From a virus: DNA of 23,327 nucleotides. A model generated the notes under the pieces. That model worked only from the letters and a program-made list of their open reading frames with translations, did not search any database and had not been told where the DNA came from. The position numbers were made by a program, and so were the translations under genes. Location of the stretch: IMG/VR virus record IMGVR_UViG_3300029705_000088; one strand, given 5' to 3'. Shown piece by piece: positions 1 to 18,362 of the stretch (within the stretch, counting starts at the first letter, position 1; every line of letters starts with the position of its first letter).

Positions 1-120
1 ATTTGAGGATAAGAGGGGGGGGAAGTGGGGTGGTTTTTATAAAAAAAAAAAAAAAAAGAAAAAAAACCCTTTTTTTTAAAAAAAAAAAAAAAAAAAAAAA
101 TAAAAAACTTTTCAAAAACC
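1..120. repeat. Low-complexity homopolymer tract (G-run, A20-30 runs, T-runs) at the window edge
   Basis: Runs such as gggggggg, a(18), t(9) and a(24) are visible directly. There is no coding signal. Confidence 0.6.
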
Positions 121-122
121 TA

Positions 123-151
123 TTGACAAAAAACCAAAAGTGTGGTATAAT
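123..151 (+). promoter_or_regulatory. Sigma70-type promoter (TTGACA, 17 bp spacer, extended TGTGGTATAAT)
   Basis: -35 ttgaca at 123-128 and tgtggtataat at 141-151. Upstream motif cttttcaaaaacc. Confidence 0.8.
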
Positions 152-197
152 ATATACAGAGAGAGGGAGAAACCCTCACAGAAAGGAAGTAAATAAA

Positions 198-404
198 ATG
201 ACTACTAACAACAGACCGCATGCCGCTTACAATCTTACTACTGGTGAAGTGCTTATGGCAAACAATGTCAGATGGCTTGAGAGCGCAATCAGAAGCACTA
301 ATATTTATAATGAAACAAATCACAAAATCAAAAGCAAGTGGGTGTTTGCGCATGGTAGAGATTACCAAAAAAAATTAATCGCAAAGATTGGTAAATGCTG
401 GTAA
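198..404 (+). CDS. Hypothetical small protein (68 aa)
   Basis: ATG at 198 sits after the promoter and a leader hairpin (gaggg agaaa ccctc, 163-177), with RBS aaggaag. The upstream part of the 3..404 ORF is translated homopolymer. Confidence 0.7.
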   Translation: MTTNNRPHAAYNLTTGEVLMANNVRWLESAIRSTNIYNETNHKIKSKWVFAHGRDYQKKLIAKIGKCW

Positions 405-428
405 TTCCAGCATTTACCATTTTTAATT
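390..428 (+). terminator. Intrinsic terminator hairpin (ggtaaatgctgg/ccagcatttacc) followed by a T-run
   Basis: A 12-bp inverted repeat overlaps the stop codon and is followed by atttttaattt. Confidence 0.65.
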
Positions 429-559
429 TATGAACAAATTGTAAAATTTCTATGAATAAAAAATTCATAAATTGTTTACAAAAAATTCATTTTTAATTTA
501 CAAATTATTTACAAAATATGCTTGATTTTGAGCCGGCCGCTCGCGTTCCAAGCGGCCGG

Positions 560-860
560 AGTTCACAAATTGTGAACAATTTGTGAATTTTTTGTAAACA
601 AATTGTGAACAAATTGTAAACTTTTTATTTCCCGAATGTGAACAAATTGTGAACAAATTGTAAATTTTTTGTTAACAATTTATGAATTGTTAACAAAAAA
701 TTTACAATTTGTTCACAATTATCTCTGTTCTCGGGCCCCAGGGCCCGAATTTGTGAACAAACTGTGAATTTCAATATTTTTTTTTAAATAAATTGTAAAT
801 AAATTGTGAACAAATTCTCCCGAATGTAAACAAATTGTAAATTTTTAAATTGTAAATTTT
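560..860. repeat. Array of more than 12 iteron-like copies of TGTGAACAAATTGT(A/G)AAC, in both orientations, with GC hairpins
   Basis: Direct and inverted copies are visible. GC hairpins lie at 531-560, 735-750 and 870-895. Confidence 0.8.
645..720. repeat. Large perfect palindrome with 26-bp arms (aattgtgaacaaattgtaaatttttt), capable of forming a cruciform
   Basis: Left arm 645-670 and right arm 695-720 are exact reverse complements. The 24-bp centre, gttaacaatttatgaattgttaac, itself contains GTTAAC palindromes. Confidence 0.85.
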
Positions 861-889
861 TTGTTAACAAACCCTCTCCCCTGCGGCCC

Positions 890-1142
890 GCCGATTGTTA
901 AAAATTTCACACACTTTAGTATGGTAAAGCGTGAAAGTGAAAAACAGTTTTTTGACGATTTTCGTGTTTGTGAAAAATTTCACAATGCCAGCCTTCCGTT
1001 TTGTACGACAAGTGTCGCGGGGCCCCGAAGTCGCGCTTTAGTATGGTAAAGTGATAAAGTGTTAAAATAAGGGGCGGCCGCGCGATTGTTAAAATTTTCA
1101 CGAAATTCCAGTTTTTGGAAAAAACAGTTTTCGCGTTTTCCC
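890..1142. repeat. Pair of about 60-bp direct repeats (gattgttaaaaatttcac ... ctttagtatggtaaagYg ... aaaaacagtttt), each preceded by a GC hairpin, plus a TGTGA-N6-TCACA site at 969-984
   Basis: Element copies lie at 893-911 and 1083-1100, at 914-944 and 1036-1062, and at 940-952 and 1121-1133. The palindrome tgtgaaaaatttcaca is at 969-984. Confidence 0.7.
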
Positions 1143-1440
1143 TACCCGGTAAATTTTGGAAATTCATCCACCATTTGGTAATGGAAGAAACTGGATGCGC
1201 TTGTTAAGAATTTAACGGTCTTTTTACCATTTTCTGGTAAATGGGAAAATTTGTAAGTGCTGGAAGAAAATGGTAAAAGCAGAAAATCGCAAAACTATAC
1301 GCGAACAAATGTTCGTTCGTCAAATTGCACAAAAATGTATAATATACATTTTTAGTCAAATTATACAAAAATGAATATTTATACATTTTTGTGCAAAACG
1401 TACAAAATACATTTTTTTTAAAGAAATTTCAAAAACCCCC

Positions 1441-1469
1441 TTGACAGAATCGCAATTGTGTGGTATAAT
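1441..1469 (+). promoter_or_regulatory. Sigma70-type promoter
   Basis: ttgaca at 1441-1446 and tgtggtataat at 1459-1469, 17 bp apart. Upstream tttcaaaaaccccc. Confidence 0.8.
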
Positions 1470-1527
1470 AGATACAGTAAAGGAAATCCGGAAGCCACAA
1501 AGAACGGAAGAAAGAGAGATTAAAAAA

Positions 1528-1689
1528 ATGACTATTGAAAGCATCACTTTTGAAAAGTATGTAGAAATTGCAAACCTGCTTGATGAATGCGTCGGCGATG
1601 TTTACTTGTACGGCATTGAAGAAATCGCAATTATGTGTGACGTACCCGTTGAAGTTGTTAAGTACGTTGACAGAGCTGAACACGAATAA
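1528..1689 (+). CDS. Hypothetical small protein (53 aa)
   Basis: ATG at 1528 after a conserved leader (ggaaatccggaagcc..aagaacggaagaaagagag). It is in frame within the 1441..1689 ORF. Confidence 0.65.
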   Translation: MTIESITFEKYVEIANLLDECVGDVYLYGIEEIAIMCDVPVEVVKYVDRAEHE

Positions 1690-1708
1690 TAAAAGGGGGA
1701 TAAAAAAG

Positions 1709-1828
1709 ATGTTTTGGTGGTTTATTTTCGCAGACGGCTACAGAACAGCAGTGAAGGGATTCAGCAAGCGCGAGCTTAAGGTGGAAGAAATGAAGCACGG
1801 CAAGCTGGTCAGAAAAATCCCCGCGTAA
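1709..1828 (+). CDS. Hypothetical small protein (39 aa, MFWWFIFADGY...)
   Basis: RBS aaaggggga, 8 nt, then ATG at 1709. A hairpin (atccccgcg taaa gcggggat) overlaps the stop. Confidence 0.5.
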   Translation: MFWWFIFADGYRTAVKGFSKRELKVEEMKHGKLVRKIPA

Positions 1829-1874
1829 AGCGGGGATTGACTCCAACAAAAAATAAAGAAAGAGGTAAAATAAA

Positions 1875-2240
1875 ATGAGCTGTGTTTACTATGCGATGAA
1901 CGAAAAAACGGTGCTTGCTTTACAAGAAAAAAAGCGCGGCACCTACGTCATTAAAATCGGCGAAACAAATAACGTTATCCGAAGAGCAAGAGAGGTATTT
2001 TACAGAGACAAAGACCTAATCATGAAAAATTGGGAGTGCGACGATAATATCGCATATCGCAGAGTAATTGAGGCTAACGCGCATTTGATTCTTGAAAACA
2101 ACTTTGATGTTGAACGTAAAGGGAATGACCATTATATAGTCAAGAACAAAGCAGAGCTTGCGAGAATTGAAAAAGCGCTTGATACACTGATTGAAAAAGC
2201 AATCGCGCAGGCGGATGCGGTTGATAGAATCCCTATGTGA
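1875..2240 (+). CDS. T5orf172/GIY-YIG-superfamily domain protein (121 aa)
   Basis: RBS aagaggtaaaataaaATG. The motif VYYAMNEK...YVIKIGETNNVIRRAREVF resembles the GIY...KIGxT..RR signature of T5orf172 (PF10544-like). It is a paralogue of 10750..11097. Confidence 0.7.
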   Translation: MSCVYYAMNEKTVLALQEKKRGTYVIKIGETNNVIRRAREVFYRDKDLIMKNWECDDNIAYRRVIEANAHLILENNFDVERKGNDHYIVKNKAELARIEKALDTLIEKAIAQADAVDRIPM

Positions 2241-2252
2241 CAGATGTAAAAT

Positions 2253-2290
2253 AAAGCGGCTGGGTGGAAAAAATATCCAGCCGCTTTGGT
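2253..2290 (+). terminator. Intrinsic terminator (aaagcggctgg ... ccagccgcttt)
   Basis: An 11-bp stem is followed by a T-rich tract. Confidence 0.7.
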
Positions 2291-2440
2291 AACAATTTGT
2301 TCATATTCTGTTCACAATTTGTTCATACATTTTTGTTCATATTTTGTTCACAATTTGTTCATAAAATTTTTTTAAAAAATTTACAATTGTGGGCGCCCGC
2401 TCGTTTCCGGGCGTTTACCACCCGAAACGAGCGGTATTTC
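2284..2440. repeat. Inverted-orientation iteron copies (ttgttcacaatttgttcata, at least 4 copies) plus a GC-rich hairpin island (2391-2440)
   Basis: The reverse complement of the 560-860 motif is repeated here. The stem ccgctcgtttc/gaaacgagcgg is visible. Confidence 0.75.
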
Positions 2441-2564
2441 TAATGGCCACCTAATTCCGCATTTTTTATGGCAAAAACTGGATAATTCGCATATGTTTCC
2501 CATTTCCTGAAACTACCAATAGGCCAGTTCACAGAAACTTCACAATCTATTTACAGAATATTCA

Positions 2565-2593
2565 TTGACATTTTTATTAAAATATGATATAAT
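2565..2593 (+). promoter_or_regulatory. Sigma70-type promoter (attgacatttttattaaaatatgatataat variant)
   Basis: ttgaca at 2565-2570 and tataat at 2588-2593, 17 bp apart. Confidence 0.8.
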
Positions 2594-2639
2594 ATATATA
2601 CAGTAAAGGAAAGCCAATAGGCGACCAAAGAAAGGACAC

Positions 2640-2816
2640 ATGGAGATGAAAACTTATGCTTGCTCTGTTTATCACAAGAAATTTGGATGGGATGAATACT
2701 TCGTTAAAGCGAGTAATAAAGGTGAAGCGAAGAAAGAATGTATGTATCGCCTTGATAACGAGACCGATTATCCTGCCAAAGAATGGGAAATCGTGGATGT
2801 GGTAGAGGTCAAGTGA
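2640..2816 (+). CDS. Hypothetical small protein (58 aa, MEMKTYACSVYHKKFGWDEY...), absent from the ORF track because it is under 60 aa
   Basis: ATG at 2640 after the promoter and RBS aaaggacacATG. The ORF runs to TGA at 2814-2816. A perfect hairpin (gtagaggtca/tgacctctac) overlaps the stop. Confidence 0.55.
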   Translation: MEMKTYACSVYHKKFGWDEYFVKASNKGEAKKECMYRLDNETDYPAKEWEIVDVVEVK

Positions 2817-2860
2817 CCTCTACCTTGCGAAAAAAAATTTAAAAAATTTCGCAAAACCTC

Positions 2861-2889
2861 TTGACAAACGACCGGAAATGTGATATAAT
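2861..2889 (+). promoter_or_regulatory. Sigma70-type promoter with upstream TTTCGCAAAACC element
   Basis: ttgaca at 2861-2866 and tgatataat at 2881-2889. Confidence 0.8.
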
Positions 2890-2938
2890 ATATATACAGA
2901 GGAACCCAAGAGGTTCCAAGAGAAAGGAAGTAAAAACT

Positions 2939-3405
2939 ATGTTACCTAAGATGATTTGCTTTGACATGGACGGCACCCTCGCAGACCTTTACAACGTGCC
3001 CAACTGGCTTGAACAGCTTCGTGCGTTTGACCCTGCCCCGTATCGGGAAGCAGAATGTATGTGGGATGAAGAGGAGCTTGCTTGCATCCTGAATACGCTG
3101 ATTGATAACGGCGTTGAAATTCGCATTATCACTTGGCTGTCAAAGGAAAGCACTCCCGAGTATGATGAAGCGGTACGCGAAGCGAAGCGAGAATGGCTTG
3201 AAGCCCTCGGCATTCCTTACACTCACTTCCACGGTGTAAAGTATGGCGCGACTAAGGCTGACAGCATCCGCAGATACCTTGAAGAGGACGAAACCGCTTG
3301 CTCTTTGATGACAATGAAAAGGTTCGCAAGGGCTGGCACATGGGCGAAGCGTTTGACCCGACCGCGATTGATATTCTTGAATTACTGTATGCGCTCTTGG
3401 ATTGA
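2939..3405 (+). CDS. HAD-superfamily 5'(3')-deoxyribonucleotidase-like phosphatase (NT5C family); the reading frame is interrupted by a -1 shift near 3283-3294
   Basis: The product begins MLPKMICFDMDGTLADL, which is HAD motif I (DxDGT). GATKAD supplies the motif III lysine. The motif IV stretch LLFDDNEKVRKGW lies in the -1 frame and ends at TGA 3403-3405. The listed frame instead runs on to 3436 as non-homologous sequence. Confidence 0.7.
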
Positions 3406-3453
3406 GCGCATACAGGTAAATTCAAAAAAGTTTTAATACAGGAAAGAAATAGC

Positions 3454-3645
3454 ATGGAAGAAAATATTCAGTTTAAACGTTTTCAAGCAATTATTGACCC
3501 AAAATCTATTGATATCCCAATTTTTAAATGTGAAGAATGTCCATTAAATGATAAATGCCATGATGAAAAACGCATAGATGATTTTGAGCATACTTGCATA
3601 GAAGCTATCTGGCATTATATTCAAACTGGTGAATTCTTGGCATAA
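3454..3645 (+). CDS. Hypothetical small Cys/His-containing protein (63 aa)
   Basis: RBS aggaaagaaatagcATG. No promoter of its own, so it is probably co-transcribed with the upstream gene. Confidence 0.6.
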   Translation: MEENIQFKRFQAIIDPKSIDIPIFKCEECPLNDKCHDEKRIDDFEHTCIEAIWHYIQTGEFLA

Positions 3646-3677
3646 AAAATTTTTTTCAAAAAATTTCGCAAAACCTC

Positions 3678-3706
3678 TTGACAAACACCGCAAAGTATGA
3701 TATAAT
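3678..3706 (+). promoter_or_regulatory. Sigma70-type promoter with TTTCGCAAAACC element
   Basis: ttgaca at 3678-3683 and tataat at 3701-3706. Confidence 0.8.
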
Positions 3707-3762
3707 ATATATACAGAGGAAATCCGGAAGCCCAAAAGAACGGAAGAAAGAGAGAAAACAAA

Positions 3763-4035
3763 ATGCCTACTGGTAGATTTAATGAAGTTGAAGAGAATGT
3801 TGTTCTGATGGAAGTCACCGCCGAAGAGCTTAAACTTATCATTGAAAGAAGAAAAAAAGAAATTACACGCGATAATTATATGGAAGAATTTAATGATTTA
3901 ATTTCTCGGGCAAGAAAAGATGGTATTTTCTTCTGCGTTCAACGTGGAAGAGTTGCTAACGGAACAAGACTGTTTGAAGAAGATGGTCCAGAATCATATA
4001 CAGATAGATTGAATAATATTCGTATCACCTATTAA
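3763..4035 (+). CDS. Hypothetical protein (90 aa)
   Basis: Conserved leader, the same as the 1528 gene, followed by ATG at 3763. Confidence 0.7.
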   Translation: MPTGRFNEVEENVVLMEVTAEELKLIIERRKKEITRDNYMEEFNDLISRARKDGIFFCVQRGRVANGTRLFEEDGPESYTDRLNNIRITY

Positions 4036-4065
4036 ATAAAAGCCGCCTTTGGGCGGTTTTTTATT
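4036..4065 (+). terminator. Intrinsic terminator (aagccgcc ttt gggcggtttttt)
   Basis: GC stem followed by a T-run. Confidence 0.75.
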
Positions 4066-4160
4066 TCAATTTCAATTTTTGTTTCCATTTTTTGGATTCA
4101 TTTTTTCATTTCAATTCATATTTTGTTTTCATTTTATTTACAAATTTTGACTTGACTTTT

Positions 4161-4196
4161 GGGCCGGCCGCCCGCGCTCCAAGCGGCCGGTTTTTG
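4161..4196. terminator. GC-rich hairpin (gggccggccgcccgcgctccaagcggccgg) plus a T-run. It is a homologue of the 531-560 hairpin and is followed by iteron copies.
   Basis: ccggccgc/gcggccgg stem. gaacaaattgtgaa copies lie at 4195-4252. Confidence 0.6.
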
Positions 4197-4308
4197 AACA
4201 AATTGTGAATTTCAATACTTTTTTGTAAGCATTTTGTAAACAAATTGTGAAGGGAAATTTTCCCAAAATGTTTGTGCAATTTGACGAAAGATTTTTTTCA
4301 AAAACCTA

Positions 4309-4337
4309 TTGACTTTTGGCTTGATATGTGGTATAAT
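4309..4337 (+). promoter_or_regulatory. Sigma70-type promoter
   Basis: ttgact at 4309-4314 and tgtggtataat ending at 4337, 17 bp apart. Confidence 0.8.
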
Positions 4338-4371
4338 ATATATACAGAAAAGAAAGAGAGGTACATCACAA

Positions 4372-4575
4372 ATGACTAACACTAAAATTTATTTTGAGGT
4401 AGAAATTGAGGGCGTAGTAACCCAATTCAATAATTTCAATGATGCCCGTGATGAGTATAACGCGCTCATGGAATGCGGTTTCTACGAAGCCACCCTTCAC
4501 AGAGTAGAAGAAGTCAATGGCGACAAATACATAGTAGTATGGAATGACAGAAGTGCTTGCTTTTTCCCCCGCTAA
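4372..4575 (+). CDS. Hypothetical small protein (67 aa)
   Basis: ATG at 4372 with RBS aaagagagg. Confidence 0.65.
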   Translation: MTNTKIYFEVEIEGVVTQFNNFNDARDEYNALMECGFYEATLHRVEEVNGDKYIVVWNDRSACFFPR

Positions 4576-4604
4576 AAATCTTTAAAAAACTTTCGCAAAA
4601 CCCC

Positions 4605-4633
4605 TTGACAAATCGCTCAAAGTATGATATAAT
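4605..4633 (+). promoter_or_regulatory. Sigma70-type promoter (canonical class-A copy aaaaccccttgacaaatcgctcaaagtatgatataat)
   Basis: ttgaca at 4605-4610 and tataat at 4628-4633. Confidence 0.85.
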
Positions 4634-4675
4634 ATATATACCCCCGATACAGGGGGTAGAAAGAGAGATAGACCA

Positions 4676-5380
4676 ATGAACACAGAAAAGATTGACCGCC
4701 GCAGACATTACATTATCGTGCTTGACACGGAAACCGCAAACACCTTCCGCGATGAAAGAGGACAGCTTGACACAAGTAGTACACTTGTGTATGACCTTGG
4801 GTGGGCGGTAACTGATAAGCATGGAAACATCTACCGCAAAAAGAGTTTTGTAAATTCTGATATTTTCTTCCATGAAGCTGAACTGATGAAGTCGGCATAC
4901 TACGCAAATAAAATCCCGCAGTATCTCGCAGACATTGAAGCGGGTAGGCGCATTGTGGCTAATACCTATCAAATGCGCTCGGCTCTGCTGAATGATATCG
5001 CAGATTTCGCAGTTGATACAATTTGCGCGCATAACGCCCGTTTTGACTACAACAGCCTAAACAGCACAGAGCGCTGGACTACAAAAAGCAAGTACCGCTA
5101 TTTTCTCCCTTATGGAATTACAATTTGGGACAGTATGAAGATGGCGCAAAGTGTAATCGGAAAGATGCCCACCTACCGCGCATTTTGTGAAGAACATGGT
5201 TATCTGACAAAAACTGGCAGACTTTCCATGACAGCGGAAAATCTTTACAGATTCATTTCCCGCAATAATGATTTTGTTGAAAATCATACAGGGCTTGAAG
5301 ATGTGGAAATTGAAGCGCAGATAATGGCGTACTGTTTCAGACAACACAAGGCAATGCAGAAAGAGTTATGGGGGAATTAA
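4676..5380 (+). CDS. DnaQ-like DEDDh 3'-5' exonuclease (234 aa)
   Basis: Exo I is IIVLDTETAN, Exo II is AHNARFDYNSL, and Exo III is HTGLEDVEIEAQ. The leader hairpin ccccc gataca ggggg lies at 4641-4656. Confidence 0.75.
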   Translation: MNTEKIDRRRHYIIVLDTETANTFRDERGQLDTSSTLVYDLGWAVTDKHGNIYRKKSFVNSDIFFHEAELMKSAYYANKIPQYLADIEAGRRIVANTYQMRSALLNDIADFAVDTICAHNARFDYNSLNSTERWTTKSKYRYFLPYGITIWDSMKMAQSVIGKMPTYRAFCEEHGYLTKTGRLSMTAENLYRFISRNNDFVENHTGLEDVEIEAQIMAYCFRQHKAMQKELWGN

Positions 5381-5429
5381 TCCCCCATGACTACCGCAAA
5401 AAAAACTTTAAGAAATTTCGCAAAACCCC

Positions 5430-5458
5430 TTGACAAAACCGCAAAAGTATGATATAAT
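5430..5458 (+). promoter_or_regulatory. Sigma70-type promoter driving the tRNA-like gene
   Basis: ttgaca at 5430-5435 and tataat at 5453-5458. Confidence 0.8.
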
Positions 5459-5498
5459 ATATATACAGAAGAGAGGAACAAATCCTCCCCGATAATAT

Positions 5499-5605
5499 GG
5501 CAGTGAGATAGAAGCGGCTCTATTTCCATAAAGATGGCTTGAGATACAACAAATGGAAACGTTCGCCATTGGAAAACGTAGGTTCAACTCCTACCACTGC
5601 CTCCA
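5499..5605 (+). tRNA. tRNA-like gene, non-canonical length (107 nt). It has a 7-bp acceptor stem, a canonical T-arm and 3' CCA, but the middle part does not fold into a standard anticodon arm.
   Basis: ggcagtg at 5499-5505 pairs with cactgcc at 5595-5601. The T-arm gtagg-ttcaact-cctac is at 5578-5594, the discriminator t is at 5602, and CCA is at 5603-5605. A D-arm-like atag aagcggct ctat is present. I could not place a 7-nt anticodon loop with U33, nor find a CUA anticodon. Confidence 0.45.
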
Positions 5606-5636
5606 AAAAATTTTTCAAAAACTTTTGCAAAACCCC

Positions 5637-5665
5637 TTGACAAATCGCTCAAAGTATGATATAAT
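5637..5665 (+). promoter_or_regulatory. Sigma70-type promoter (class-A copy)
   Basis: ttgaca at 5637-5642 and tataat at 5660-5665. Confidence 0.85.
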
Positions 5666-5749
5666 ATATATACCGAAGCAAGAGGGCACGACCTCCAATC
5701 GGTAAAATAAAAATAATGGGTAGCGACCTACGCTGAAAGGATTGATACC

Positions 5750-6139
5750 ATGGCTACTACTAACTCTACTTCCAAGAAGCTCACTAAGCGCGACCACTTC
5801 AACACCCTGCTCCAGCTCCCCGAAGTTGCCGCAAATCCCGCACTCGTTGATTTCATCAACAACGAACTTGACCTGCTGGCTCGCAAGAACAACAGCGACA
5901 ACAAGAAGCTCACTGAAAAGGACATCGCAAATCAGGGGCTTAAGGCGGCGATTCTTGAATTCGCAACCGCGAGCGGCGAACAGCACACTGTTACCGACTT
6001 CATCAAGAACGTGCCTGCGTGCGCTGGACTTTCTCCGCAGAAGATTACCGCACTGGTTCGCCAGATGGTAGAAGATGGCAAGCTTGAAAAGGTAATCGTA
6101 AAGCGCGTATCTTACTTCCGCATTCCGGAGGGGGTTTAA
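5750..6139 (+). CDS. Hypothetical protein (129 aa), cassette A gene 1, with a possible C-terminal winged helix
   Basis: An 80-nt structured leader ends ...gctgaaaggattgataccATG. Codon usage is rich in C-ending codons. It is a paralogue of 9851..10249. Confidence 0.8.
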   Translation: MATTNSTSKKLTKRDHFNTLLQLPEVAANPALVDFINNELDLLARKNNSDNKKLTEKDIANQGLKAAILEFATASGEQHTVTDFIKNVPACAGLSPQKITALVRQMVEDGKLEKVIVKRVSYFRIPEGV

Positions 6140-6170
6140 TCCCCCTCCCCCAAGAGGGGGGACGTAATCC

Positions 6171-6527
6171 ATGAGCGAACAGGAAAAAGCAATGCGGCGG
6201 CTCGGCTTTACAGATGAAGAAATCGCCGACGTAATGGACGCAGATAAGCGCATTGACAAGGGCGAAAAACTATTTGAGCAGACCGCCGAAGAAAAGAACG
6301 CAAGTAAAGAATTGCGGCGAGCACCGCGCAAAGTCGTTGACGCATACGGCAAAGCAAGCACCAAGGAACGCAAAAGCGACAACGACAAGCAAGCACTAAT
6401 CAAAGGCATTGAAATGGCAATTTTTGACAAAGTGGAAAATCTTACCATTATCAATCCCGAACGTGAAATGGAGTTTCTTTACAATGGTAGAAAATTCAAG
6501 TTGACTCTATCTGCTCCCCGAAAGTAA
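6171..6527 (+). CDS. Hypothetical protein (118 aa), cassette A gene 2
   Basis: ATG at 6171 after the stacked hairpins gaggggg/ccccctc and ccccc aagag ggggg. It is a paralogue of 10285..10692. Confidence 0.75.
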   Translation: MSEQEKAMRRLGFTDEEIADVMDADKRIDKGEKLFEQTAEEKNASKELRRAPRKVVDAYGKASTKERKSDNDKQALIKGIEMAIFDKVENLTIINPEREMEFLYNGRKFKLTLSAPRK

Positions 6528-6537
6528 ATATTTTCCA

Positions 6538-6570
6538 AAATGCATATTACAAATGTAATATGCATTTTTG
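6538..6570. promoter_or_regulatory. Perfect AT-rich palindrome (aaaatgcatattaca aa tgtaatatgcatttt), a candidate operator or terminator
   Basis: The 15-bp arms are exact reverse complements. Confidence 0.5.
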
Positions 6571-6589
6571 TTTATTTTGACGAAAATTT

Positions 6590-6790
6590 CCAGTTCACAA
6601 ATTGTTTACAAAATATACTTGATTTGTTCAAACGCGCGTCGCCGATGGTGGCGCGCGTTTTTTTTGTCAATAGGTAATGTATACAAATTTTCAGAAAATT
6701 TTTGGGCGTTTTTAGTCAATTCATACAAATCCCGCAATTATGAACATTTTGTAAACAATAAAGAAAACCTATTGACTTTTTTATTATAAT
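6590..6790. repeat. About 190-bp intergenic repeat element, copy 1 (tttacaaaatatacttgatttgttcaaac, a GC hairpin with T-run terminator at 6631-6668, then ...caaatcccgcaattatgaacattttgtaaa...)
   Basis: Close similarity to 11150..11340. The GC hairpin aaacgcgcg...cgcgcgttttttttt is visible. Confidence 0.8.
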
Positions 6791-6800
6791 ATGATATAAT
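6772..6800 (+). promoter_or_regulatory. Sigma70-type promoter
   Basis: ttgact at 6772-6777 and tgatataat ending at 6800, 17 bp apart. Confidence 0.8.
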
Positions 6801-6845
6801 ATATATACAGAAAACAAAGAGCCAACAGGCAAAGGAGATAAAACA

Positions 6846-7277
6846 ATGAAAAATATTTACGCTGTTAAGAATTACGTCCGCTTTGATGATGAATGGGAAG
6901 AAATTTTTGTGTGGGATTACAATTATGAGTATCTCACCCCCGAAGAAGCAAAAACCTTTGAAGATACTTTCCGCACGACCTGCCGCACGTTTGAGGAACT
7001 GCGCGAAGAGGTAGACAGATTCCCCGGTATCAAAGAAAATTATACCTTTTTCCGGCGCAGTCCTTACATCCGTGTGCAGGGTTCTGATTGGGATAGCTAT
7101 GGCAAATATTATGATGAAAAGCATTTCAAGAAGCCTATTAGCTTCAAGAAGGTCTGTAAAAGAGTTAATAACCTTTCCATTAATGATTTGATGAAAGTAT
7201 TAACTGCAGAAGATTTTGCAGACTGGTGGAAAGACCACGCAGGCGAAACGCAGTGCCCGTTCAAAAAGAATTCATAA
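6846..7277 (+). CDS. Hypothetical protein (143 aa)
   Basis: RBS aaaggagataaaacaATG. Confidence 0.8.
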   Translation: MKNIYAVKNYVRFDDEWEEIFVWDYNYEYLTPEEAKTFEDTFRTTCRTFEELREEVDRFPGIKENYTFFRRSPYIRVQGSDWDSYGKYYDEKHFKKPISFKKVCKRVNNLSINDLMKVLTAEDFADWWKDHAGETQCPFKKNS

Positions 7278-9501: not shown

Positions 9502-9579
9502 ATATATGTACCAAACAAAAGGATGCGCGGGGACGCCGAAAGCCACTCAAAAAAATTTGAAAAACTTTTCAAAAACCCC

Positions 9580-9608: not shown

Positions 9609-9614
9609 ATATAT

Positions 9615-9720
9615 GTCAGGGGCGAGGGTGAGTAAAACCTCGTAAAAAATCTCCTCATCAAGTGAAGTCCAAAATGCGATAAATTGACTTCAAATCTTGA
9701 TAGTATCGCAAAAAATTTTT
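9615..9720 (+). ncRNA. Candidate small non-coding RNA (about 105 nt): a 5' hairpin plus an H-type pseudoknot, ending in AAAAAATTTTT
   Basis: There is no ORF beyond a 10-codon one. The 5' hairpin is cgagg...cctcg (9623-9642). The pseudoknot has S1 at 9657-9669 paired with 9686-9701, and S2 tgcgata (9675-9681) paired with tatcgca (9704-9710), interleaved. Confidence 0.4.
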
Positions 9721-9741
9721 GAAAAACTTTTCAAAAACCCC

Positions 9742-9770
9742 TTGACAAATACCATAAAGTATGGTATAAT
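9742..9770 (+). promoter_or_regulatory. Sigma70-type promoter for cassette B
   Basis: ttgaca at 9742-9747 and tataat at 9765-9770. Confidence 0.8.
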
Positions 9771-9850
9771 ATATATACCGGGTGAGGGAAACCTACCACG
9801 GCAAACAAATTAAAAGGTTGGCAACCTAAACAGCTGAAAGGATTGATACC

Positions 9851-10249
9851 ATGGCTAACACTAATTCTACTCTCAACGCTACCGCAAAGAAGCTCACCAA
9901 GCGTGACCACTTCAACGCCCTCCTCGCTATCCCCTCTGTAGCATCTAACCCCACGCTCGTTGAATTCATTGAAAATGAGCTTGACCTACTGGCTCGTAAG
10001 AACGCTAAGCCGTCTGGCAAGCAGATGGAAAAGAAGGAAGCAAACGATGCGCTGAAGCAGGCAATGCTTGACTACCTCGCAAATGATGGCGGTCAGCACA
10101 CCGTTACTGACTTCATCAAGAATGTTCCCGAATGCGCTGGACTGTCCCAGCAGAGAATCACTGCGCTTGTCCGTCAGCTGGTAGAAGATGGCAAGATGGA
10201 AAAGGTGATTGAAAAGCGCGTTTCCTACTTCAAGCTGGCAGAGGTTTAA
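9851..10249 (+). CDS. Hypothetical protein (132 aa), cassette B gene 1, paralogue of 5750..6139
   Basis: The same structured leader ending gctgaaaggattgataccATG. About 60% identity to the cassette A protein by eye. C-ending codon bias. Confidence 0.8.
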   Translation: MANTNSTLNATAKKLTKRDHFNALLAIPSVASNPTLVEFIENELDLLARKNAKPSGKQMEKKEANDALKQAMLDYLANDGGQHTVTDFIKNVPECAGLSQQRITALVRQLVEDGKMEKVIEKRVSYFKLAEV

Positions 10250-10284
10250 TCCTCTGCCACGCCTAACCAAAAGAGGTGATGAAG

Positions 10285-10692
10285 ATGGAACTGACCCGAG
10301 CCGACAAAGCGCAAGTCAAGCGAATTCAAGAGGGCTTGCGCTGTACCGAAGAAGAAGCTCTTGAGGTTTTGTCCTATGACAAGGAAGTTGAGAAGGCTTC
10401 CGCTAATGACAGGCTGGCGTACGACCTTGACAAGGAGACAGAGAAGGAAGCGATGCGTATGGCTAACTGCCGCGACCGCAAGCCTACTGTTTACAATTTC
10501 TCCCAGCGTGAGCGCAAGGCAAATCCCACAAAGGGCGGAATAATCGCAGAATTGGCGGAGTTTTTGACAAAAAACAGTCAGTTTGCGACCGAAGATGTGG
10601 AAATTACCAACAAAGAACGGCAAATTGCGTTCAAAATTGGTGAAGATGCCTTTGAATTGACGCTTGTTCAGAAGCGAAAGCCCAAAAAGTAA
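10285..10692 (+). CDS. Hypothetical protein (about 136 aa), cassette B gene 2, paralogue of 6171..6527
   Basis: RBS aagagg. Candidate ATGs lie at 10279 and 10285; the track uses GTG at 10276. Confidence 0.7.
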   Translation: MELTRADKAQVKRIQEGLRCTEEEALEVLSYDKEVEKASANDRLAYDLDKETEKEAMRMANCRDRKPTVYNFSQRERKANPTKGGIIAELAEFLTKNSQFATEDVEITNKERQIAFKIGEDAFELTLVQKRKPKK

Positions 10693-10694
10693 AG

Positions 10695-10724
10695 AAAAGT
10701 GGGAATTTTTCCCACTTTTCACTT
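10695..10724 (+). terminator. Intrinsic terminator (aaaagtggga atttt tcccactttt)
   Basis: 10-bp stem followed by a T-run. Confidence 0.7.
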
Positions 10725-10749
10725 AAATTTTAGTCAAAAAGATGCAAAA

Positions 10750-11097
10750 ATGGCAGAAAAAGAGTTTCTTTATGTGGGTTTTTACCACGATACCGACAAA
10801 AATTTTGTTCTAAAGATTGGAACAACTAACGACCTAAAGCGCAGACAGGCAGAGCACACGCGCAATTATAGGAAAAGCCCTGAACACACAATGCCGCCAG
10901 ATGGCAAATTTACCTATTTATGGAAGCTGCCCCTTTCAAAATATAATACTCTGCGTTTTGAGGACAGAAACCGCCAAAAGTGGCAGGAAATGGGAATTGG
11001 TGAATATGTGCGGAACGACCGCTTTGTTCTCCATGAAATTCCACCACAGGTAGAAATTACCATCCGCAAAACTTATACAATCCCTCTACTGATGTAG
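10750..11097 (+). CDS. T5orf172/GIY-YIG-superfamily protein (115 aa), with no promoter of its own, inserted into copy B of the duplicated cassette
   Basis: FLYVGFYHDTDKNFVLKIGTTNDLKRRQAEH matches the GIY..YIG..R..H pattern and is paralogous to 1875..2240. The gene ends with TAG inside a terminator hairpin. Confidence 0.7.
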   Translation: MAEKEFLYVGFYHDTDKNFVLKIGTTNDLKRRQAEHTRNYRKSPEHTMPPDGKFTYLWKLPLSKYNTLRFEDRNRQKWQEMGIGEYVRNDRFVLHEIPPQVEITIRKTYTIPLLM

Positions 11098-11112
11098 AGG
11101 GATTTTCTTTTG
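11082..11112 (+). terminator. Intrinsic terminator (ccctctac tgat gtagaggg plus a T-rich tract) that contains the TAG stop
   Basis: Perfect 8-bp stem followed by attttcttttg. Confidence 0.65.
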
Positions 11113-11149
11113 TGCATAATGACGAAAATGCTGTGTTCATAATTTATTT

Positions 11150-11340
11150 ACAAAATATACTTGATTTGTTCAAACGCCCGCGACCGGAGGCCACGGGCGT
11201 TATTTTGTCAAGTGGTAATCTATACAAATTTTCAGAAATTTTTTTAACATTTTTGTACAAACCGCACAAATCCCGCAATTATGAACATTTTGTAAATAAA
11301 CAAGAATATCTATTGACATTTTTATAAAAATATGATATAA
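11150..11340. repeat. About 190-bp intergenic repeat element, copy 2 (homologue of 6590..6790)
   Basis: The same tttacaaaatatacttgatttgttcaaacgc, a GC hairpin (gcccgcgaccggaggccacgggcg), and ...caaatcccgcaattatgaacattttgtaaa. Confidence 0.8.
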
Positions 11341-11341
11341 T
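11313..11341 (+). promoter_or_regulatory. Sigma70-type promoter
   Basis: ttgaca at 11313-11318 and tgatataat ending at 11341. Confidence 0.8.
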
Positions 11342-11381
11342 ATATATACAGTAAAGAACCAACAGAAAGAGAGCAAATAAA

Positions 11382-11843: not shown

Positions 11844-11887
11844 AATAGTACCCCCCAGAGAGGGGGGGAGAAAGAGAGTAAAATAAA

Positions 11888-12295
11888 ATGGAAAAAGTAA
11901 TGTATTTTATCGCAGAAGATGGCACGCAGTTTGAAGATGAATTTGACTGCGTACAGTATGAAGAAGAACTCCACATTAAGCAGGTGTTTGAACCTTTCTC
12001 CTGTTATGATATCAATGGACATCTTCTTGACACTAATGACGAGCATTTTGAATCCGATGATGTATATTATATTCTTGTAAAAGAAGATAATTACGAAGAT
12101 GGAAGTTATATGGAGCTGGATGATTTTATTTTTGATGGTGAATTACCTGCTCTTAGCCATGTTTTCAAAGATACTGATACCACGTTGATTTATTTCAATC
12201 GTAATTCTGACACTTGGGAAAACTGGCACGAAGAATTCAACAGGCTTACTGAAATGATGAAAATGTTTCAACTGTTTGCGGGGAAGGGCGAGTAA
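11888..12295 (+). CDS. Very acidic hypothetical protein (135 aa), a candidate DNA-mimic or anti-restriction type
   Basis: Leader hairpin cccccc agaga ggggggg. D and E residues heavily outnumber K and R residues. Confidence 0.75.
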   Translation: MEKVMYFIAEDGTQFEDEFDCVQYEEELHIKQVFEPFSCYDINGHLLDTNDEHFESDDVYYILVKEDNYEDGSYMELDDFIFDGELPALSHVFKDTDTTLIYFNRNSDTWENWHEEFNRLTEMMKMFQLFAGKGE

Positions 12296-12731: not shown

Positions 12732-13210
12732 CCACTTCTTTTTCGTTATTTTATACAAAAATAATTTGTTTACAAATTATGATAGATTTGTTCACATTTG
12801 CGCCGCCCGATTGCGCTCGCGCAGGGCGGGATTTCCATTTTTTACCATATTTACAAAATTTTGCGGCGATTTCCAGGATTTTCCAGTCCAGCCAGATTTT
12901 CCCATATTCTACACCTGTCAAGCGGTCCGGGCGCGGGCGCTGCGGACCGAGTTCCCGTTCGGACCCCCATATGCGAATTTTTTGCTACTTCTAGCGACCC
13001 TCAGCCTATATGCGCATTTTCCTATAATTCTAGTACCCCAGCCAGCCGACCGGAATTGTAAAATTTTTGTAAAAATTTTTGTAAAATTTTTATGAACGCG
13101 CGATTTCTCCAGAGATACGCCAGTGCTTATCTATTGAGAGCTACGGCTTAAATAAAGACCCTCTCCCTCACATTTACTCAAAAATTTTTTTGCGTGGCTT
13201 AAAATGCCGA
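12732..13210. repeat. About 480-bp non-coding island with a GC-rich core (12800-13060), several repeat families, and the boundary between the two promoter classes
   Basis: Tandem repeats of about 42 bp lie at 12965-13006 and 13007-13048. A triple tgtaaaattttt repeat lies at 13056-13095. Hairpins include cggtccg..cggaccg, and atttcc(a)g direct repeats are present. Confidence 0.7.
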
Positions 13211-13876: not shown

Positions 13877-14098
13877 AAGAAAGGATGAGGGATGACGATG
13901 ACGAGGGAAAAGTGATGAGTGTCTAGTGGAGCCGAACGGCACGACACCTCTCCAATTTTCGCAATTTTTATTACTTATTACTTTATTTACTTATTATTAT
14001 CTATATAATTATTATCTATTATCTATACAGTTGTTATCCATTATCAACCTATTACTTACTACCTACTACCTATTATCTATATTGTTACCTACCTACTA

Positions 14099-14299
14099 TC
14101 ACAACACCCAAATAACTCCCTGCCGCAACAACTTCCTTCTCTCCTTGCCAATCTCCTTAAACCTCTTCCTCTCCTCCGCCTCAAACCCTCTCAACAACCA
14201 ACATCCAAGAGCAGAAGAAAAAGAAACTCTTTTCAACACATACCTAACAACTGCGCCTAGCACCAAGCCAACTACTACACCTGCCGCGACCCCTATCAT
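14099..14299 (-). CDS. Small membrane protein (66 aa), the last gene of the minus-strand operon
   Basis: Its start overlaps the upstream stop as ATGA. It has an N-terminal hydrophobic helix and a basic C-terminus. Confidence 0.6.
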   Translation of the reverse strand: MIGVAAGVVVGLVLGAVVRYVLKRVSFSSALGCWLLRGFEAEERKRFKEIGKERRKLLRQGVIWVL

Positions 14300-14607
14300 A
14301 ACTTAACCTCTTTCAATTCCGCAAAAAACTTATCAACTACCGTACTATATTGACTAAAATAATTATCTTTTTCCTTTTCTTTCTCTTTCTTTAACTTTTC
14401 ATATACCCAACATTTATTGCTCCCAAACTCTTTAACTTTCATATCTAATCCTACTCTACCAACAACTTTACCTTTAAAAACTAACCACCTATCATCATCT
14501 TCAATAATAAAATAATTCTCTTTATCCTTATTCTTCTCATTCAAAAAATAATTATCTCTATCAATTAAATAAACATTTTTATAACCATACGTACCACAAT
14601 GCCTCAT
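14296..14607 (-). CDS. Hypothetical protein (103 aa)
   Basis: RBS aaaggtg precedes the ATG. The stop is TGA. Confidence 0.65.
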   Translation of the reverse strand: MRHCGTYGYKNVYLIDRDNYFLNEKNKDKENYFIIEDDDRWLVFKGKVVGRVGLDMKVKEFGSNKCWVYEKLKKEKEKEKDNYFSQYSTVVDKFFAELKEVKL

Positions 14608-14648
14608 GAGTTTTCAATTCACCTTTCTGAAAGGGTCCCTTTTTCATT

Positions 14649-14930
14649 TCATTTTTCAAATACATTCTATAAAATAGAATCCGCATCATCAAAATTAAAA
14701 TTCATACCCTATAAAAAAGGATTATCCTCTCTTTCATTTTTATTTTCAAATATATTATAGCATATTTTTTTATCTTTATCAACTCTTCTTTTATTTTCTA
14801 AAACAAAGAAAATTTTTCCAGTTGTTTCATCTATATACAATTCTTTTACTTTTCTATGAGGCTGCTTCGCAACCTCTGATAAACCTGAATGATAATCATT
14901 TTCACTTAATTTTACAAAACCGACTTCCAT
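14649..14930 (-). CDS. Hypothetical protein (93 aa) containing two in-frame TAG codons, consistent with amber being read as sense
   Basis: Strong RBS aaaaaggagaattcaaaATG. The frame is open from 14930 to TGA at 14649-14651, apart from TAG at 14709-14711 and 14667-14669. The track truncates this ORF at the first TAG. Confidence 0.55.
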
Positions 14931-14995
14931 TTTGAATTCTCCTTTTTCACTTCAGTTTTCCGCCCCTATCAACAGAAAAAAATTTTCTATAAGAA

Positions 14996-15033
14996 ATTTA
15001 TGTTCCAAGCGATAGCTGGAACATAAATTTCGC
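14996..15033. promoter_or_regulatory. Perfect palindrome (aaatttatgttcca agcgatagct tggaacataaattt) upstream of the minus-strand gene, a candidate operator
   Basis: 14-bp exact inverted arms. Confidence 0.5.
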
Positions 15034-15059
15034 TTTGTTAATTATTTAGTTTTTAGTAT

Positions 15060-15145
15060 TATTTAGATATAATATGAAAAATTACCCTTTTTTCCTTTTT
15101 ACTAACTATTAAAAATTGCCCTCACTAACTATTAAAAATTACCCT
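15060..15145. repeat. Three copies of the 24-bp motif (plus form ACTAACTATtAAAAATTrCCCTtt; minus form AAAGGGTAATTTTTAATAGTTAGT)
   Basis: Copies lie at about 15064-15084, 15091-15113 and 15124-15145. Confidence 0.75.
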
Positions 15146-15146
15146 T

Positions 15147-15830
15147 TTATTTCTTTTTACTATTATATACTAAAGATACATTTAATAATTTTTTCTTTGG
15201 TACTTTATTAATATAAATGGTTTCATAGTCAATTAATTTTGAATTATATAATAATTCTAAAGCGTGATTAATTATATCATAAGCTCTCTAATTATTTTTT
15301 ATATATATACCTATATGTTCTGCTATTTCATTCAAAGTAAAAATATAATTTTCCTACTATTTTAATCTTTTATTCTAATCTTCTTTATATTTATATTTCT
15401 AAACTAAATAAATATAAATTTTAATAATATGTTCCCGACAGTTATCCTATAAATATTCTAAAGTTGCTAAAGGAATATCTAAATAAATATTTTCTTTTAC
15501 TGGCAAATAATAATCTCCATTCTCTTTTTCCACTAAATACCCCTAATCTTTTAATGACTTCAAATGCGCTCTTAATGTTTTTGGACTTTTAATTTTTAAT
15601 TTTTCACACATATCTATTTGTTTTGGAATAATTGATTTCTTTACTACTGTTTCATATACTTCATAAGCCACACCCTTATCATCTTTTTTACAAACTTTTT
15701 CTGCTATTGAAATAGACTATAACAATCCATACAATTCACCATCTAATGTATTTGTATTTAAAAAAGTTTCATAATCTAATGTAGTATCCGCAGGAAACCT
15801 TTTTTCAATCTAATCTTTTGATTTTACCAC
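15147..15830 (-). CDS. Double winged-helix DNA-binding protein, RepA/replication-initiator-like (about 227 aa); the frame contains 8 in-frame TAG codons and no TAA or TGA
   Basis: RBS GGAGG, 7 nt, then GTG at 15830. The frame stays open to TAA at 15147-15149 apart from 8 TAGs. The translation carries two clean winged-helix motifs, MCEKLKIKSPKTLRAHLKSLKD*GYLVEKENGDYYLPV and FTLNEIAEHIGIYIKNN*RAYDIINHALELLYNSKLI. No ORF of at least 60 aa is called here in any frame. Confidence 0.6.
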
Positions 15831-15849
15831 AAGGAAACCTCCAATCTAA

Positions 15850-16065
15850 ATTTTACTAACTATGAAAAATTACCTTTCTAGTCGCACAATTATTTCAATT
15901 TCATTTATTTATATTTTACCTTTTTTGTCCAATATTTTTAGGTAATTTTACCTTTTTTAAAAGTAATATTCTAATAATATTTCTATTAAAAAATTAATAA
16001 AAATATTACTTACTAACTATGAAAAATTACCTAAAATTTTACTAACTATTAAATTTTACCCTTTT
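15850..16065. repeat. At least four further copies of the 24-bp motif family, between the divergent minus-strand operon and the plus-strand promoter
   Basis: ttttactaactatgaaaaattacctttc at 15851-15878, weaker copies at 15905-15960, then copies at 16007-16030 and 16035-16062. Confidence 0.75.
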
Positions 16066-16084
16066 CTAATTAACAATAACTCTA

Positions 16085-16113
16085 TTGACATTTATAAAAA
16101 AATATGATATAAT
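16085..16113 (+). promoter_or_regulatory. Sigma70-type promoter, class B
   Basis: ttgaca at 16085-16090 and tataat at 16108-16113. Near-identical to the 13214 promoter and leader. Confidence 0.8.
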
Positions 16114-16145
16114 ATATATACAAAATAAAAAAAGGAGATAAAATA

Positions 16146-16358
16146 ATGAAAATTACTTATAGTCAAAAATATTTCGTCATGTCTTTTAATGAACTTAACC
16201 CCGGAGATGCTTTCCTCTATCATGGTAATCTTTATCTAAAATTATATAAGTTAGGCTCAAATTCGGGCGACGCAGTTTCTCTTGAGAGTGGCCATACATT
16301 ATGGATTAATACTTATGAAGCAGTAGAAAAAGTAGATGTGGAGGTAGTAGTTAAATAA
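16146..16358 (+). CDS. Hypothetical small protein (70 aa)
   Basis: RBS aaaggagataaaataATG. It is a paralogue of the next gene. Confidence 0.75.
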   Translation: MKITYSQKYFVMSFNELNPGDAFLYHGNLYLKLYKLGSNSGDAVSLESGHTLWINTYEAVEKVDVEVVVK

Positions 16359-16561: not shown

Positions 16562-16573
16562 AAGTATCGTAAT

Positions 16574-18345: not shown

Positions 18346-18362
18346 TTTGCGGAGGCATAACT

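Follow-up and report, generated by a model that had tools for sequence, protein, structure and literature searches.

A gene-free repeat region in the early-gene block of a gut phage as a possible multi-operator hub of Rex-type and LexA-type sites

In plasmid Rep systems (RepE, RepA, pi) and in ori and crr of the satellite phage P4, one recognition sequence is present both as direct repeats and as a dyad, in several separated clusters. A half-site that appears in both direct and inverted orientation is the hallmark of plasmid Rep systems, and the separate clusters of P4 can cooperate. In phage T5, the untranslated repeat region with the injection stop signal (iss) carries conserved paired DnaA boxes (bioRxiv 10.1101/866236). 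Among the regulators of Gram-positive hosts, TTGTGAANNNNTTCACAA is the Rex operator consensus (PMC3441419), TTGTTAANNNNTTAACAA is its clostridial form (PMC4600107) and GAAC-N4-GTTC is the LexA consensus (PMC4234289). In our study, positions 405-1440 of a viral DNA record of 23,327 nucleotides (IMGVR_UViG_3300029705_000088, the whole of which is called the window) have been analysed. This gene-free stretch is filled with phased repeats, palindromes and dyads, and the three untranslated repeat regions of the T5 left terminal repeat appear to be the closest described precedent for its overall arrangement.

The window was found to be the early-gene block of a large uncultured gut phage. Our best explanation, which is tentative, is that the phage infects gut Firmicutes and that 405-1440 is a multi-operator protein-binding hub acting on early transcription or on the sensing of host state. 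The repeated elements are presumably protein-binding sites, and their main factor would be Rex-like, either the host Rex itself or a phage protein of the same specificity. In the mechanism proposed here, a winged-helix or helix-turn-helix (HTH) protein would bind the dyads as a dimer and spread along the phased arrays. Together with LexA and other factors, this Rex-like factor would build a nucleoprotein block, through which the very strong early transcription units, all running in one direction, may be insulated or tuned and made responsive to the redox and SOS state of the host. Copy number and orientation of the hub elements vary between relatives, and we infer that the hub is accessory and is not the only replication origin of the phage. 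Two functions had been suggested in the initial annotation: the stretch would be a replication origin, or else a dimeric HTH protein would bind it as a master regulatory region. The latter fits better, considering the mosaic of dyads and half-sites and its recurrence in relatives, whereas the origin has been weakened; as a better fit, the dimeric-HTH proposal can now be made more precise, with Rex-type and LexA-type operators and phased arrays of the half-site as its parts.

The half-site TTGT[GTA]AA is present in 30 copies in 405-1440, against 2.8 expected and a maximum of 8 after shuffling, and the 17-mer TGTRAACAAATTGTRAA with up to two mismatches has 23 matches in the window against 0.04 expected, 13 of which are in 429-841. 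Hexamers on the same strand form 105 pairs at distances of up to 110 bp, and in 51 of these pairs the distance is exactly divisible by 11. More than 12 copies of a 19-mer in both orientations had been described at first; the repetition is far beyond chance, but because of this phasing the array is better read as about 20 units of 11 bp than as separate 19-mers. The commonest unit of the stretch is this half-site of 6-7 bp, TGT(G/T/A)AA, and with its 11-bp repeat the copies all face the same side of the helix. The main TGT(G/A/T)AA array (562-680, plus strand) keeps a strict 11-bp register, with hexamers at 571, 582, 593, 604 and 615 and, after a gap, at 637, 648, 659 and 670; the interruption has the sequence TTTATTTCC. 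At 645-720, three or four iteron units face each other in a perfect palindrome of 76 bp, whose arms (645-680 and 685-720) are 100% complementary over 36 nt, not over the 26 bp given earlier, and are separated by the asymmetric 4-nt spacer TATG. As single-stranded DNA this palindrome folds at -36.9 kcal/mol (z = -11.7). A second set of iteron pairs is present at 749-870 (plus strand; hexamers at 752/763, 794/805, 825/836 and 851/862), two sub-arrays of which are introduced by CCCGAAT. On the left, the AT-rich lead-in at 423-520 holds the first iteron pair (429-445), a dyad TATGAAT-N5-ATTCATA at about 450-468 and reverse-oriented hexamers at 475, 497 and 508.

The iteron motif also recurs outside the stretch, in every case between genes. 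Its reappearance, placed by the initial annotation at 2284-2390 (inverted) and 4195-4252, was recovered at 2296-2390 (inverted) and 4193-4251, and further recurrences were found at 2528-2566, 6594, 9204, 9299 and 11136. The array at 2296-2390 (minus strand) has the same hexamers on the other strand and forms an inverted partner; together with 568-621 it brackets the segment 578-2524, which the relative L010 does not have. At 2528-2570 (plus strand), three or four TTCACA/TTTACA hexamers with 11-bp spacing run into the -35 hexamer of the promoter at 2565, and this arrangement is kept in L010. The group at 4193-4251 (plus strand) is small and stands directly 3' of a GC hairpin at 4162-4190, which is the same hairpin-plus-iteron module as in 405-1440. 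The motif is not uniformly spread, as a compositional artefact would be; its families are restricted to the spaces between genes of the early block, and all of them remain limited to this block in a 35.5-kb composite (window -5325 to +30160).

The half-site that stands head-to-tail every 11 bp in the arrays stands head-to-head in four 18-bp dyads of the form TTGTKAA-N4-TTMACRA, which start at 895, 968, 1086 and 1201, and here also the half-sites begin 11 bp apart. The dyad at 968-985, TTGTGAA-AAAT-TTCACAA, is perfect and is the only perfect match in the window (0 expected). Its core, TGTGA-N6-TCACA at 969-984, had been recognised before as a CRP/FNR-family site; the half-site arrangement holds, but the label is too narrow, as the dyad agrees with the Rex operator consensus at 14 of 14 specified positions. 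In Firmicutes, Rex is a more specific match than CRP/FNR. Two of the other dyads are Rex-type with one mismatch: TTGTTAAAAATTTCACAC at 895-912, inside the direct repeat 883-910, and TTGTTAAAATTTTCACGA at 1086-1103, inside the repeat 1074-1101 and overlapping the extended -10-like sequence TGTTAAAAT. The fourth, TTGTTAAGAATTTAACGG at 1201-1218, has two mismatches and is surrounded by the TGGTAA repeats noted earlier, which are four TGGTAA/TTACCA copies in 1176-1276. Most other Rex-type copies follow the clostridial form TTGTTAANNNNTTAACAA with 0-2 mismatches. When the early block is extended with the 91-kb contig L002, eight Rex-type dyads with at most one mismatch are found between window -3003 and +1201, against 0.1 expected; about 10 Rex-type sites are present per genome, all in the first DNA expressed.

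Further dyad families share the right half of the stretch. Direct repeats of about 60 bp had been reported at 890-1142; repeats are indeed present there, but as two pairs of about 30 bp in swapped order, namely 883-910/1074-1101 (86% identity) and 914-944/1036-1066 (84% identity). The dyad ACTTTA-N6-TAAAGC at 913-930 lies inside repeat 914-944 and a second member of its family at 1035-1052 inside repeat 1036-1066; the ACTTTA-N6-TAAAGT family has five members in L002, seven in L015 and five in L021. The ACAAAAATGTAT palindromes observed earlier near the right end are three units of 36-37 bp with ACAAAAATGTAT/ATACATTTTTGT dyads (1307-1416), and a reverse copy of the motif TTTGTGCAATTTGACGAA is present at 1316-1333. 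The same motif is also found upstream of promoters at 4270, in L012 and in L017. Moreover, a perfect Gram-positive SOS (LexA) box, CGAACAAATGTTCG, is located at 1302-1315; no second match is present in the window, against 0.0-0.2 expected. The box falls between the two hexamers of TTGACG-18-TATAGT, a promoter-like site that points leftward (1294-1323, minus strand; 10 of 12 matches in the promoter scan). Downstream of this site the open reading frame (ORF) list contains no credible gene and Rfam no known RNA. LexA boxes are also present in L002, L010, L015, L017 and L023, and a LexA-like one in L024.

A panel of factor motifs gave 19 perfect TTHACA-N5-TTHACA pairs, whereas sites for DnaA, Fur, PerR, CtsR, CIRCE, NrdR, ArgR, Spo0A and cre were absent from 405-1440 or not above expectation there; the DnaA box TTATCCACA has no match in this stretch at up to one mismatch. 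We take the PhoP box to be TTHACA-N5, the WalR box TGTWAH-N5-TGTWAH and the ResD box TTTGTGAAT, and in these response-regulator boxes the hexamers presumably stand head-to-tail every 11 bp, as they do here.

The absence of credible genes from 405-1440, as first described, has been borne out: the ORFs are short and have no ribosome-binding sites, and gene callers run on six independent contigs of the same phage reported nothing in this stretch except one 34-residue ORF on one contig. An 83-residue minus-strand ORF at 916-1167 was considered and discarded, having no proper ribosome-binding site and never being called on any contig. No Rfam family and no tRNA (ARAGORN) was found in the window. 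The left border is formed by the intrinsic terminator of the upstream early gene 198-404 (389-419, plus strand; a 13-pair stem followed by TTTTT in the terminator scan). On the right, the stretch ends before the promoter at 1441, and an A/T-rich upstream element with the consensus promoter TTGACA-17-TGgTATAAT of the next early operon occupies 1417-1469 (plus strand). As for the four GC-rich hairpins reported within it, two fold significantly: one at 533-559 (plus strand) before the iteron array, with a 9-bp stem CCGGCCGCT/AGCGGCCGG and a DNA fold of -12.5 kcal/mol (z = -3.4), and one at 731-748 (plus strand), with a 7-bp stem TCGGGCC/GGCCCGA and -8.0 kcal/mol (z = -2.8). The remaining GC blocks (872-893, 1012-1035 and 1069-1085) show no significant fold (z about 0). 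Hairpins equivalent to 533-559 but with different stem sequences occur in L002, L010, L012, L015, L017 and Enterococcus phage H1. The pairing of the GC hairpins is kept in every relative examined despite the changed stems, and since they are mostly followed by T-runs, they are most simply read as terminator-type.

Comparison with relatives has shown which parts of this arrangement are kept. The early-block exonuclease served as the measure of relatedness; its identity to that of the window is 88% in L010, 68-70% in L015 and L017, 46% in L024, 41% in H1 and 29% in phAss-1. In L002, L010, L015 and L017 the early block is headed by a module of leader, GC hairpin, iterons, ACTTTA dyads, Rex-type dyads and first promoter, and the hairpin 533-559 before the iteron array repeats that arrangement. 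Positions 520-700 are about 84% identical to the array at 2030-2163 of L002, including the internal TTTATTTCC interruption, and since that array belongs to the head module, 405-1440 is an expanded second copy (paralogue) of it. The close relative L010, with flanks 93% identical, is entirely without 578-2524 and has 78 unrelated bases instead, which makes 405-1440 dispensable; L010 keeps the head module and the smaller iteron groups. In L015 and L017 the hexamers and the 11-bp register are kept, while the spacers are changed and the orientation is reversed; hexamers that persist while spacers differ suggest recognition on one helix face.

Rex-type dyads, SOS boxes and ACTTTA-N6-TAAAGT dyads recur in the early-block non-coding spacers of distant relatives also. 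In MT837012 (L021), 8.5 kb of sequence contains five Rex-type sites, of which three are perfect TTGTTAA-N4-TTAACAA, and L024 has three sites adjoining its LexA-like box. In the 138-kb genome of H1, seven Rex-type matches with up to two mismatches were obtained, and six of these are confined to two gaps between genes. The first gap heads the early block (90.4-91.1 kb), and the second is directly before the HAD and exonuclease genes (99.8-100.3 kb); three of the sites are perfect TTGTGAA-N4-TTCACAA. This is the same two-hub layout as in the window phage, and the H1 hubs have additional dyad families of their own and a similar GC hairpin. The form of the dyad also changes with the host class, being TTGTGAA..TTCACAA in the Enterococcus phage and mostly TTGTTAA..TTAAC, the clostridial Rex form, in the gut phages. 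That the variant follows host class favours a host factor.

Several observations weigh against a hub of this kind. The dyads of 405-1440 lie 223-529 bp upstream of the next -35 hexamer, and as most are 220-530 bp away they cannot be classical promoter-occluding operators; the copies further upstream are at 40-163 bp, some of them at a fixed 40-51 bp, and an overlap of the Rex-type sites with the promoter of a repressed gene was not found. We know of no binding mode of Rex dimers on direct repeats of the half-site. The short AT-rich half-site also resembles what we take to be the sites of PhoP, WalR, ResD and Fnr, a likeness that is a lead only. The motif families are not present in L012, phAss-1 and L022; at the corresponding places, the L012 spacers have a GC hairpin and then a leftward consensus promoter. 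The sole recognisable phage candidate for a DNA-binding factor in the window is a 129-residue winged-helix protein (5750-6139, with a paralogue at 9851-10249), which has a generic fold and is also present in the motif-free L012. When this protein was considered as the array-binding factor, its presence and absence across relatives gave no discrimination, L012 being free of iterons. Finally, binding of Rex and LexA is a prediction, and the host is indicated only by a hint to Clostridia from the binning of metagenome-assembled genomes (MAGs).

A wider proposal, which we regard as speculative and on the unlikely side, is that a large, widespread clade of gut Firmicutes phages, from the cultured Enterococcus phages H1, EF1 and VRE9 to uncultured phages that reassign TAG, has conserved early non-coding hubs of host-regulator operators (Rex, LexA and possibly CodY) which read host state or titrate the regulators. 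A lytic phage would then read the metabolic and SOS state of its host in the first minutes of infection, or titrate the regulators once its DNA is replicated. If true, early phage development would be tied to host redox and DNA damage with no need for a sensor from the phage. The lineage is very abundant in the gut, as the exonuclease family by which these phages are marked has more than 6,500 metagenomic members, and the idea is directly testable since the cultured Enterococcus phages share the two-hub layout.

Among the rival explanations, an iteron-type origin or replication enhancer is rather unlikely. An initiator would occupy the direct repeats in monomeric and the dyads in dimeric form and melt the adjoining AT-rich DNA, and several arrays might cooperate like ori and crr of P4. 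Phased direct repeats with the same half-site also in dyads would suit such a site, but the units are of 11 bp, whereas classical iterons are of 17-22 bp, and the arrays stand at six or more intergenic places in variable number and orientation. In favour of an origin, the flanks are AT-rich (about 20% GC), a long perfect palindrome is present, and strong promoters upstream of the arrays could provide activation; no DnaA boxes are present in 405-1440, however, and no initiator (Rep) gene was recognised among the window proteins in Pfam and PHROGs scans. The P4 iteron, which we take to be TGTTCACC, shares TGTTCAC with the reverse of the window iteron. In H1 the head-of-block module sits at a gene-direction change, but the replication genes are about 60 kb away from the equivalent hubs. 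Further, an essential origin would be conserved, and L010 is without 578-2524. The cumulative GC skew, proposed with the initial annotation as a check, speaks against an origin as it has no inflection at 405-1440; over the 35.5-kb composite it turns only at about 13.7 and 15.7 kb, where the genes change direction, although the skew of phage genomes follows transcription. Should the stretch be an origin after all, it would define the replication start for a phage group with none known.

It is improbable that 405-1440 is a cis-acting DNA-handling signal near the leading genome end, like the T5 repeat regions with their injection stop signal, or a terminase or concatemer-processing site. As in T5, small early genes stand behind very strong promoters of host type, T5orf172-domain genes and a HAD-family phosphatase are present, and several untranslated regions of 0.2-1.2 kb contain direct repeats, inverted repeats and palindromes; the DnaA boxes conserved in the T5 iss region are lacking, however (bioRxiv 10.1101/866236). 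A conserved copy heads the early block directly after the conserved leader, whereas the copy at 405-1440 lies within the block and can be dispensed with. The starts of several independent contigs cluster at up to about 100 bp from the leader without being identical, and the leader may hold a genome terminus or repeat boundary; yet the early block is internal in L002, the deposited H1 record has no terminal repeat, and neither physical ends nor a terminal repeat could be placed for the window phage.

A decoy (sponge) role is similarly doubtful. Once the phage DNA is replicated, hundreds to thousands of Rex-type and other sites would be available to titrate host repressors, and fermentation or SOS genes of the host would be derepressed during takeover. 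The consensus-quality sites are too far from promoters to repress them, about 10 Rex-type sites per genome lie in the first-expressed DNA and distant relatives have the same pattern, all of which agree with titration. The one or two LexA boxes per genome are too few to titrate LexA, on the other hand, the dyads at a fixed 40-51 bp upstream of -35 hexamers indicate local action, and we know of no phage precedent for a decoy.

Equally hard to favour is the absence of any sequence-specific function, in which 405-1440 would be curved, recombination-prone filler between early units and its sites by-products of AT-rich palindromic DNA. The perfect 14-position and 10-position consensus matches, with about 0 expected, are difficult to obtain in this way, and so are the conservation of the hexamer with variable spacers in L015 and L017 and the same dyad families at 41-46% protein identity, clustered in only two gaps of a 138-kb genome. 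In favour of filler, copy number, orientation and presence vary between close relatives, a duplication-inversion of recent date is suggested by the perfect palindrome, and a bend in the DNA would be expected from AAATT tracts with 11-bp phasing. In addition, a textbook curved-DNA array is present in phAss-1 (L020) at 11883-12003, where about 12 A-tract units, AAAATGGCT / AAAATCGTC, are phased with a period of 10-11 bp directly upstream of the early promoter at 12024. A plasmid-type centromere (parC/tubC) is not indicated, as neither an adaptor nor a partition-NTPase gene (ParM, ParA, TubZ or ParR families) was found among the window proteins in Pfam and PHROGs scans. A telomere-resolution site can be dismissed, because the 76-bp palindrome has an asymmetric TATG centre and no protelomerase is present.

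The proposed multi-operator hub is set in an exceptionally dense array of early promoters. In the window, at least 21 perfect or near-perfect promoters of the sigma-A type, TTGACA-17-TGnTATAAT, were located by the promoter scan between 123 and 16113, all on the plus strand and mostly with a conserved A/T-rich upstream element AAAAAWTTTCGCAAAACCYC. The first 12 kb contain 66 promoter-like sites against 33 expected, 16 of them perfect 12/12 matches. These promoters drive small orphan genes, and the first 13.2 kb is 59% coding. Recognised products of the block are a HAD-family phosphatase, two T5orf172-domain proteins, a DnaQ-like exonuclease and two paralogous winged-helix proteins. The winged-helix genes belong to a segmental duplication (5600-6830 and 9700-11380), each unit of which has a long 5' leader, the winged-helix gene (129/132 residues, 67% identical), the next gene and a spacer in which a GC hairpin is accompanied by GTCAA and a CodY-like box. 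What we take to be a perfect CodY-box consensus, AATTTTCAGAAAATT, is present in one spacer at 6686-6700 and, with one mismatch, in the paralogous spacer at 11227-11241; copies perfect by the same presumed consensus stand at homologous places in L010 (12816) and L018 (3528). Directly after gene 6171-6527, a perfect palindrome with 14-nt arms, AAAATGCATATTAC-AAAT-GTAATATGCATTTT (6537-6568), may be a terminator or an operator. No ORF is present in the short stretches (5470-5610, 9502-9560 and 9610-9720) downstream of the consensus promoters at 5430, 9473 and 9580, and these promoters probably drive small RNAs. The stretch 5470-5610 has tRNA-like ends, with GGCAGTG...CACTGCC acceptor-type pairing and a T-arm-like hairpin GTAGGTTCAACTCCTAC, and it is not recognised by ARAGORN or Rfam.

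Megablast of 1-6000 against a phage collection and a search for the exact iteron pattern in IMG/VR gave no match, and a single-protein search in IMG/VR gave one weak relative only. The same phage was found in at least 23 contigs from several samples, and as these are about 100% identical to one another, footprinting by comparing the 23 contigs is useless. The exonuclease is 40-42% identical to proteins of the Enterococcus phages H1, EF1, EF5 and VRE9 (134-142 kb) and 42% identical to its homologue in MT837012, an unverified human-faecal phage scaffold. For the host, a first scan of genome contigs gave no match and a profile scan gave MAG-binning hints only (Clostridia, Erysipelotrichaceae and others); the closest MAG-binned relatives are labelled Clostridia, which is weak evidence.

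The start of the window was considered as a genome end and rejected, because L002 reads 5.3 kb further left; L002 and L003 both read through this point, which is an assembly break at a poly-A run. Over about its first 80 positions the window has a G-rich run and then long poly-A and poly-T, whereas the other contigs of this phage have GAGAGGGCGAAAGCCCTCTC and then a shorter A-run at this place, and the start is probably an assembly artefact at the homopolymer.

Outside the early block (13900-23327) the genes have in-frame TAG codons, two of them in a Cys-rich ORF from 16574. On the minus strand at 13.9-16.1 kb the open frames add up to 185 residues if TAG is a stop and to 445 residues if it is sense, and the stop codons of early genes are TAA 21 times, TGA four times and TAG once. 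These counts fit TAG reassignment (code 15) in middle and late genes, which is probably why 14-16 kb looked non-coding in the initial annotation. The relative phAss-1 reassigns TAG (PMC10607447). A candidate suppressor tRNA in L012 was rejected, the gene being tRNA-Lys(ttt).

Other spacers of the relatives have features of their own. L012, a 68% relative, has perfect minus-strand consensus promoters at 6886-6920, 9724-9755, 14449-14480 and 15262-15290, which point into a GC hairpin about 10 bases off and form intergenic antisense units; in the homologous spacers of the window phage only the GTCAATAGG (-35) part is kept. L015, a 70% relative, has an intergenic stretch of 240 bp (1280-1520) that is almost free of T, with AAGAGATA/ACAAGAC-type repeats. 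Relatively GC-rich non-coding leaders or trailers flank the early block (window 12800-13130, L002 1803-2040, L010 1-200 and L012 4800-5010), and leader and GC hairpin are conserved even in L012.

The iteron origins of plasmids have units of 17-22 bp and an adjacent initiator gene, whereas the window has units of 11 bp without such a gene beside them, and its clusters are numerous, variable and partly dispensable. Iterons of 11 bp are present in the parC centromere of plasmid R1. The dyads are like the Rex operators (ROP) of Gram-positive bacteria in sequence; the window sites are phage-borne, number up to about 10 copies, lie mostly away from promoters and are accompanied by direct half-site arrays. 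Like the OmpR/PhoB-type boxes, one array (2528-2570) runs into a -35 hexamer, whereas the window arrays have up to ten units and are mostly far from promoters. As in other phages with LexA boxes, the perfect GAAC-N4-GTTC box is set between the -35 and -10 hexamers of a promoter-like site, with one box per hub and no recognisable gene downstream of the leftward site. Bacillus phage GIL01 reportedly uses the host LexA as a repressor, but LexA cannot silence the window phage in that manner because about 30 early promoters carry no box.

The likeness to T5 is one of organisation. By megablast there is no sequence similarity, the hosts here are Firmicutes, and the terminal-repeat location and two-step injection are features of T5; T5 has paired DnaA boxes, whereas 405-1440 has Rex-type dyads, a LexA box and 11-bp hexamer arrays in their absence. 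Both T5, in its regions 1-3 including iss, and the window phage possess large gene-free stretches (0.2-1.2 kb) of direct and inverted repeats and palindromes, in several copies among small early genes under very strong host-type promoters. In both, these stretches carry consensus sites for a host DNA-binding protein, and in both their function is debated. The hub described here may be the Gram-positive-phage counterpart to the long-unexplained untranslated repeat regions of T5.

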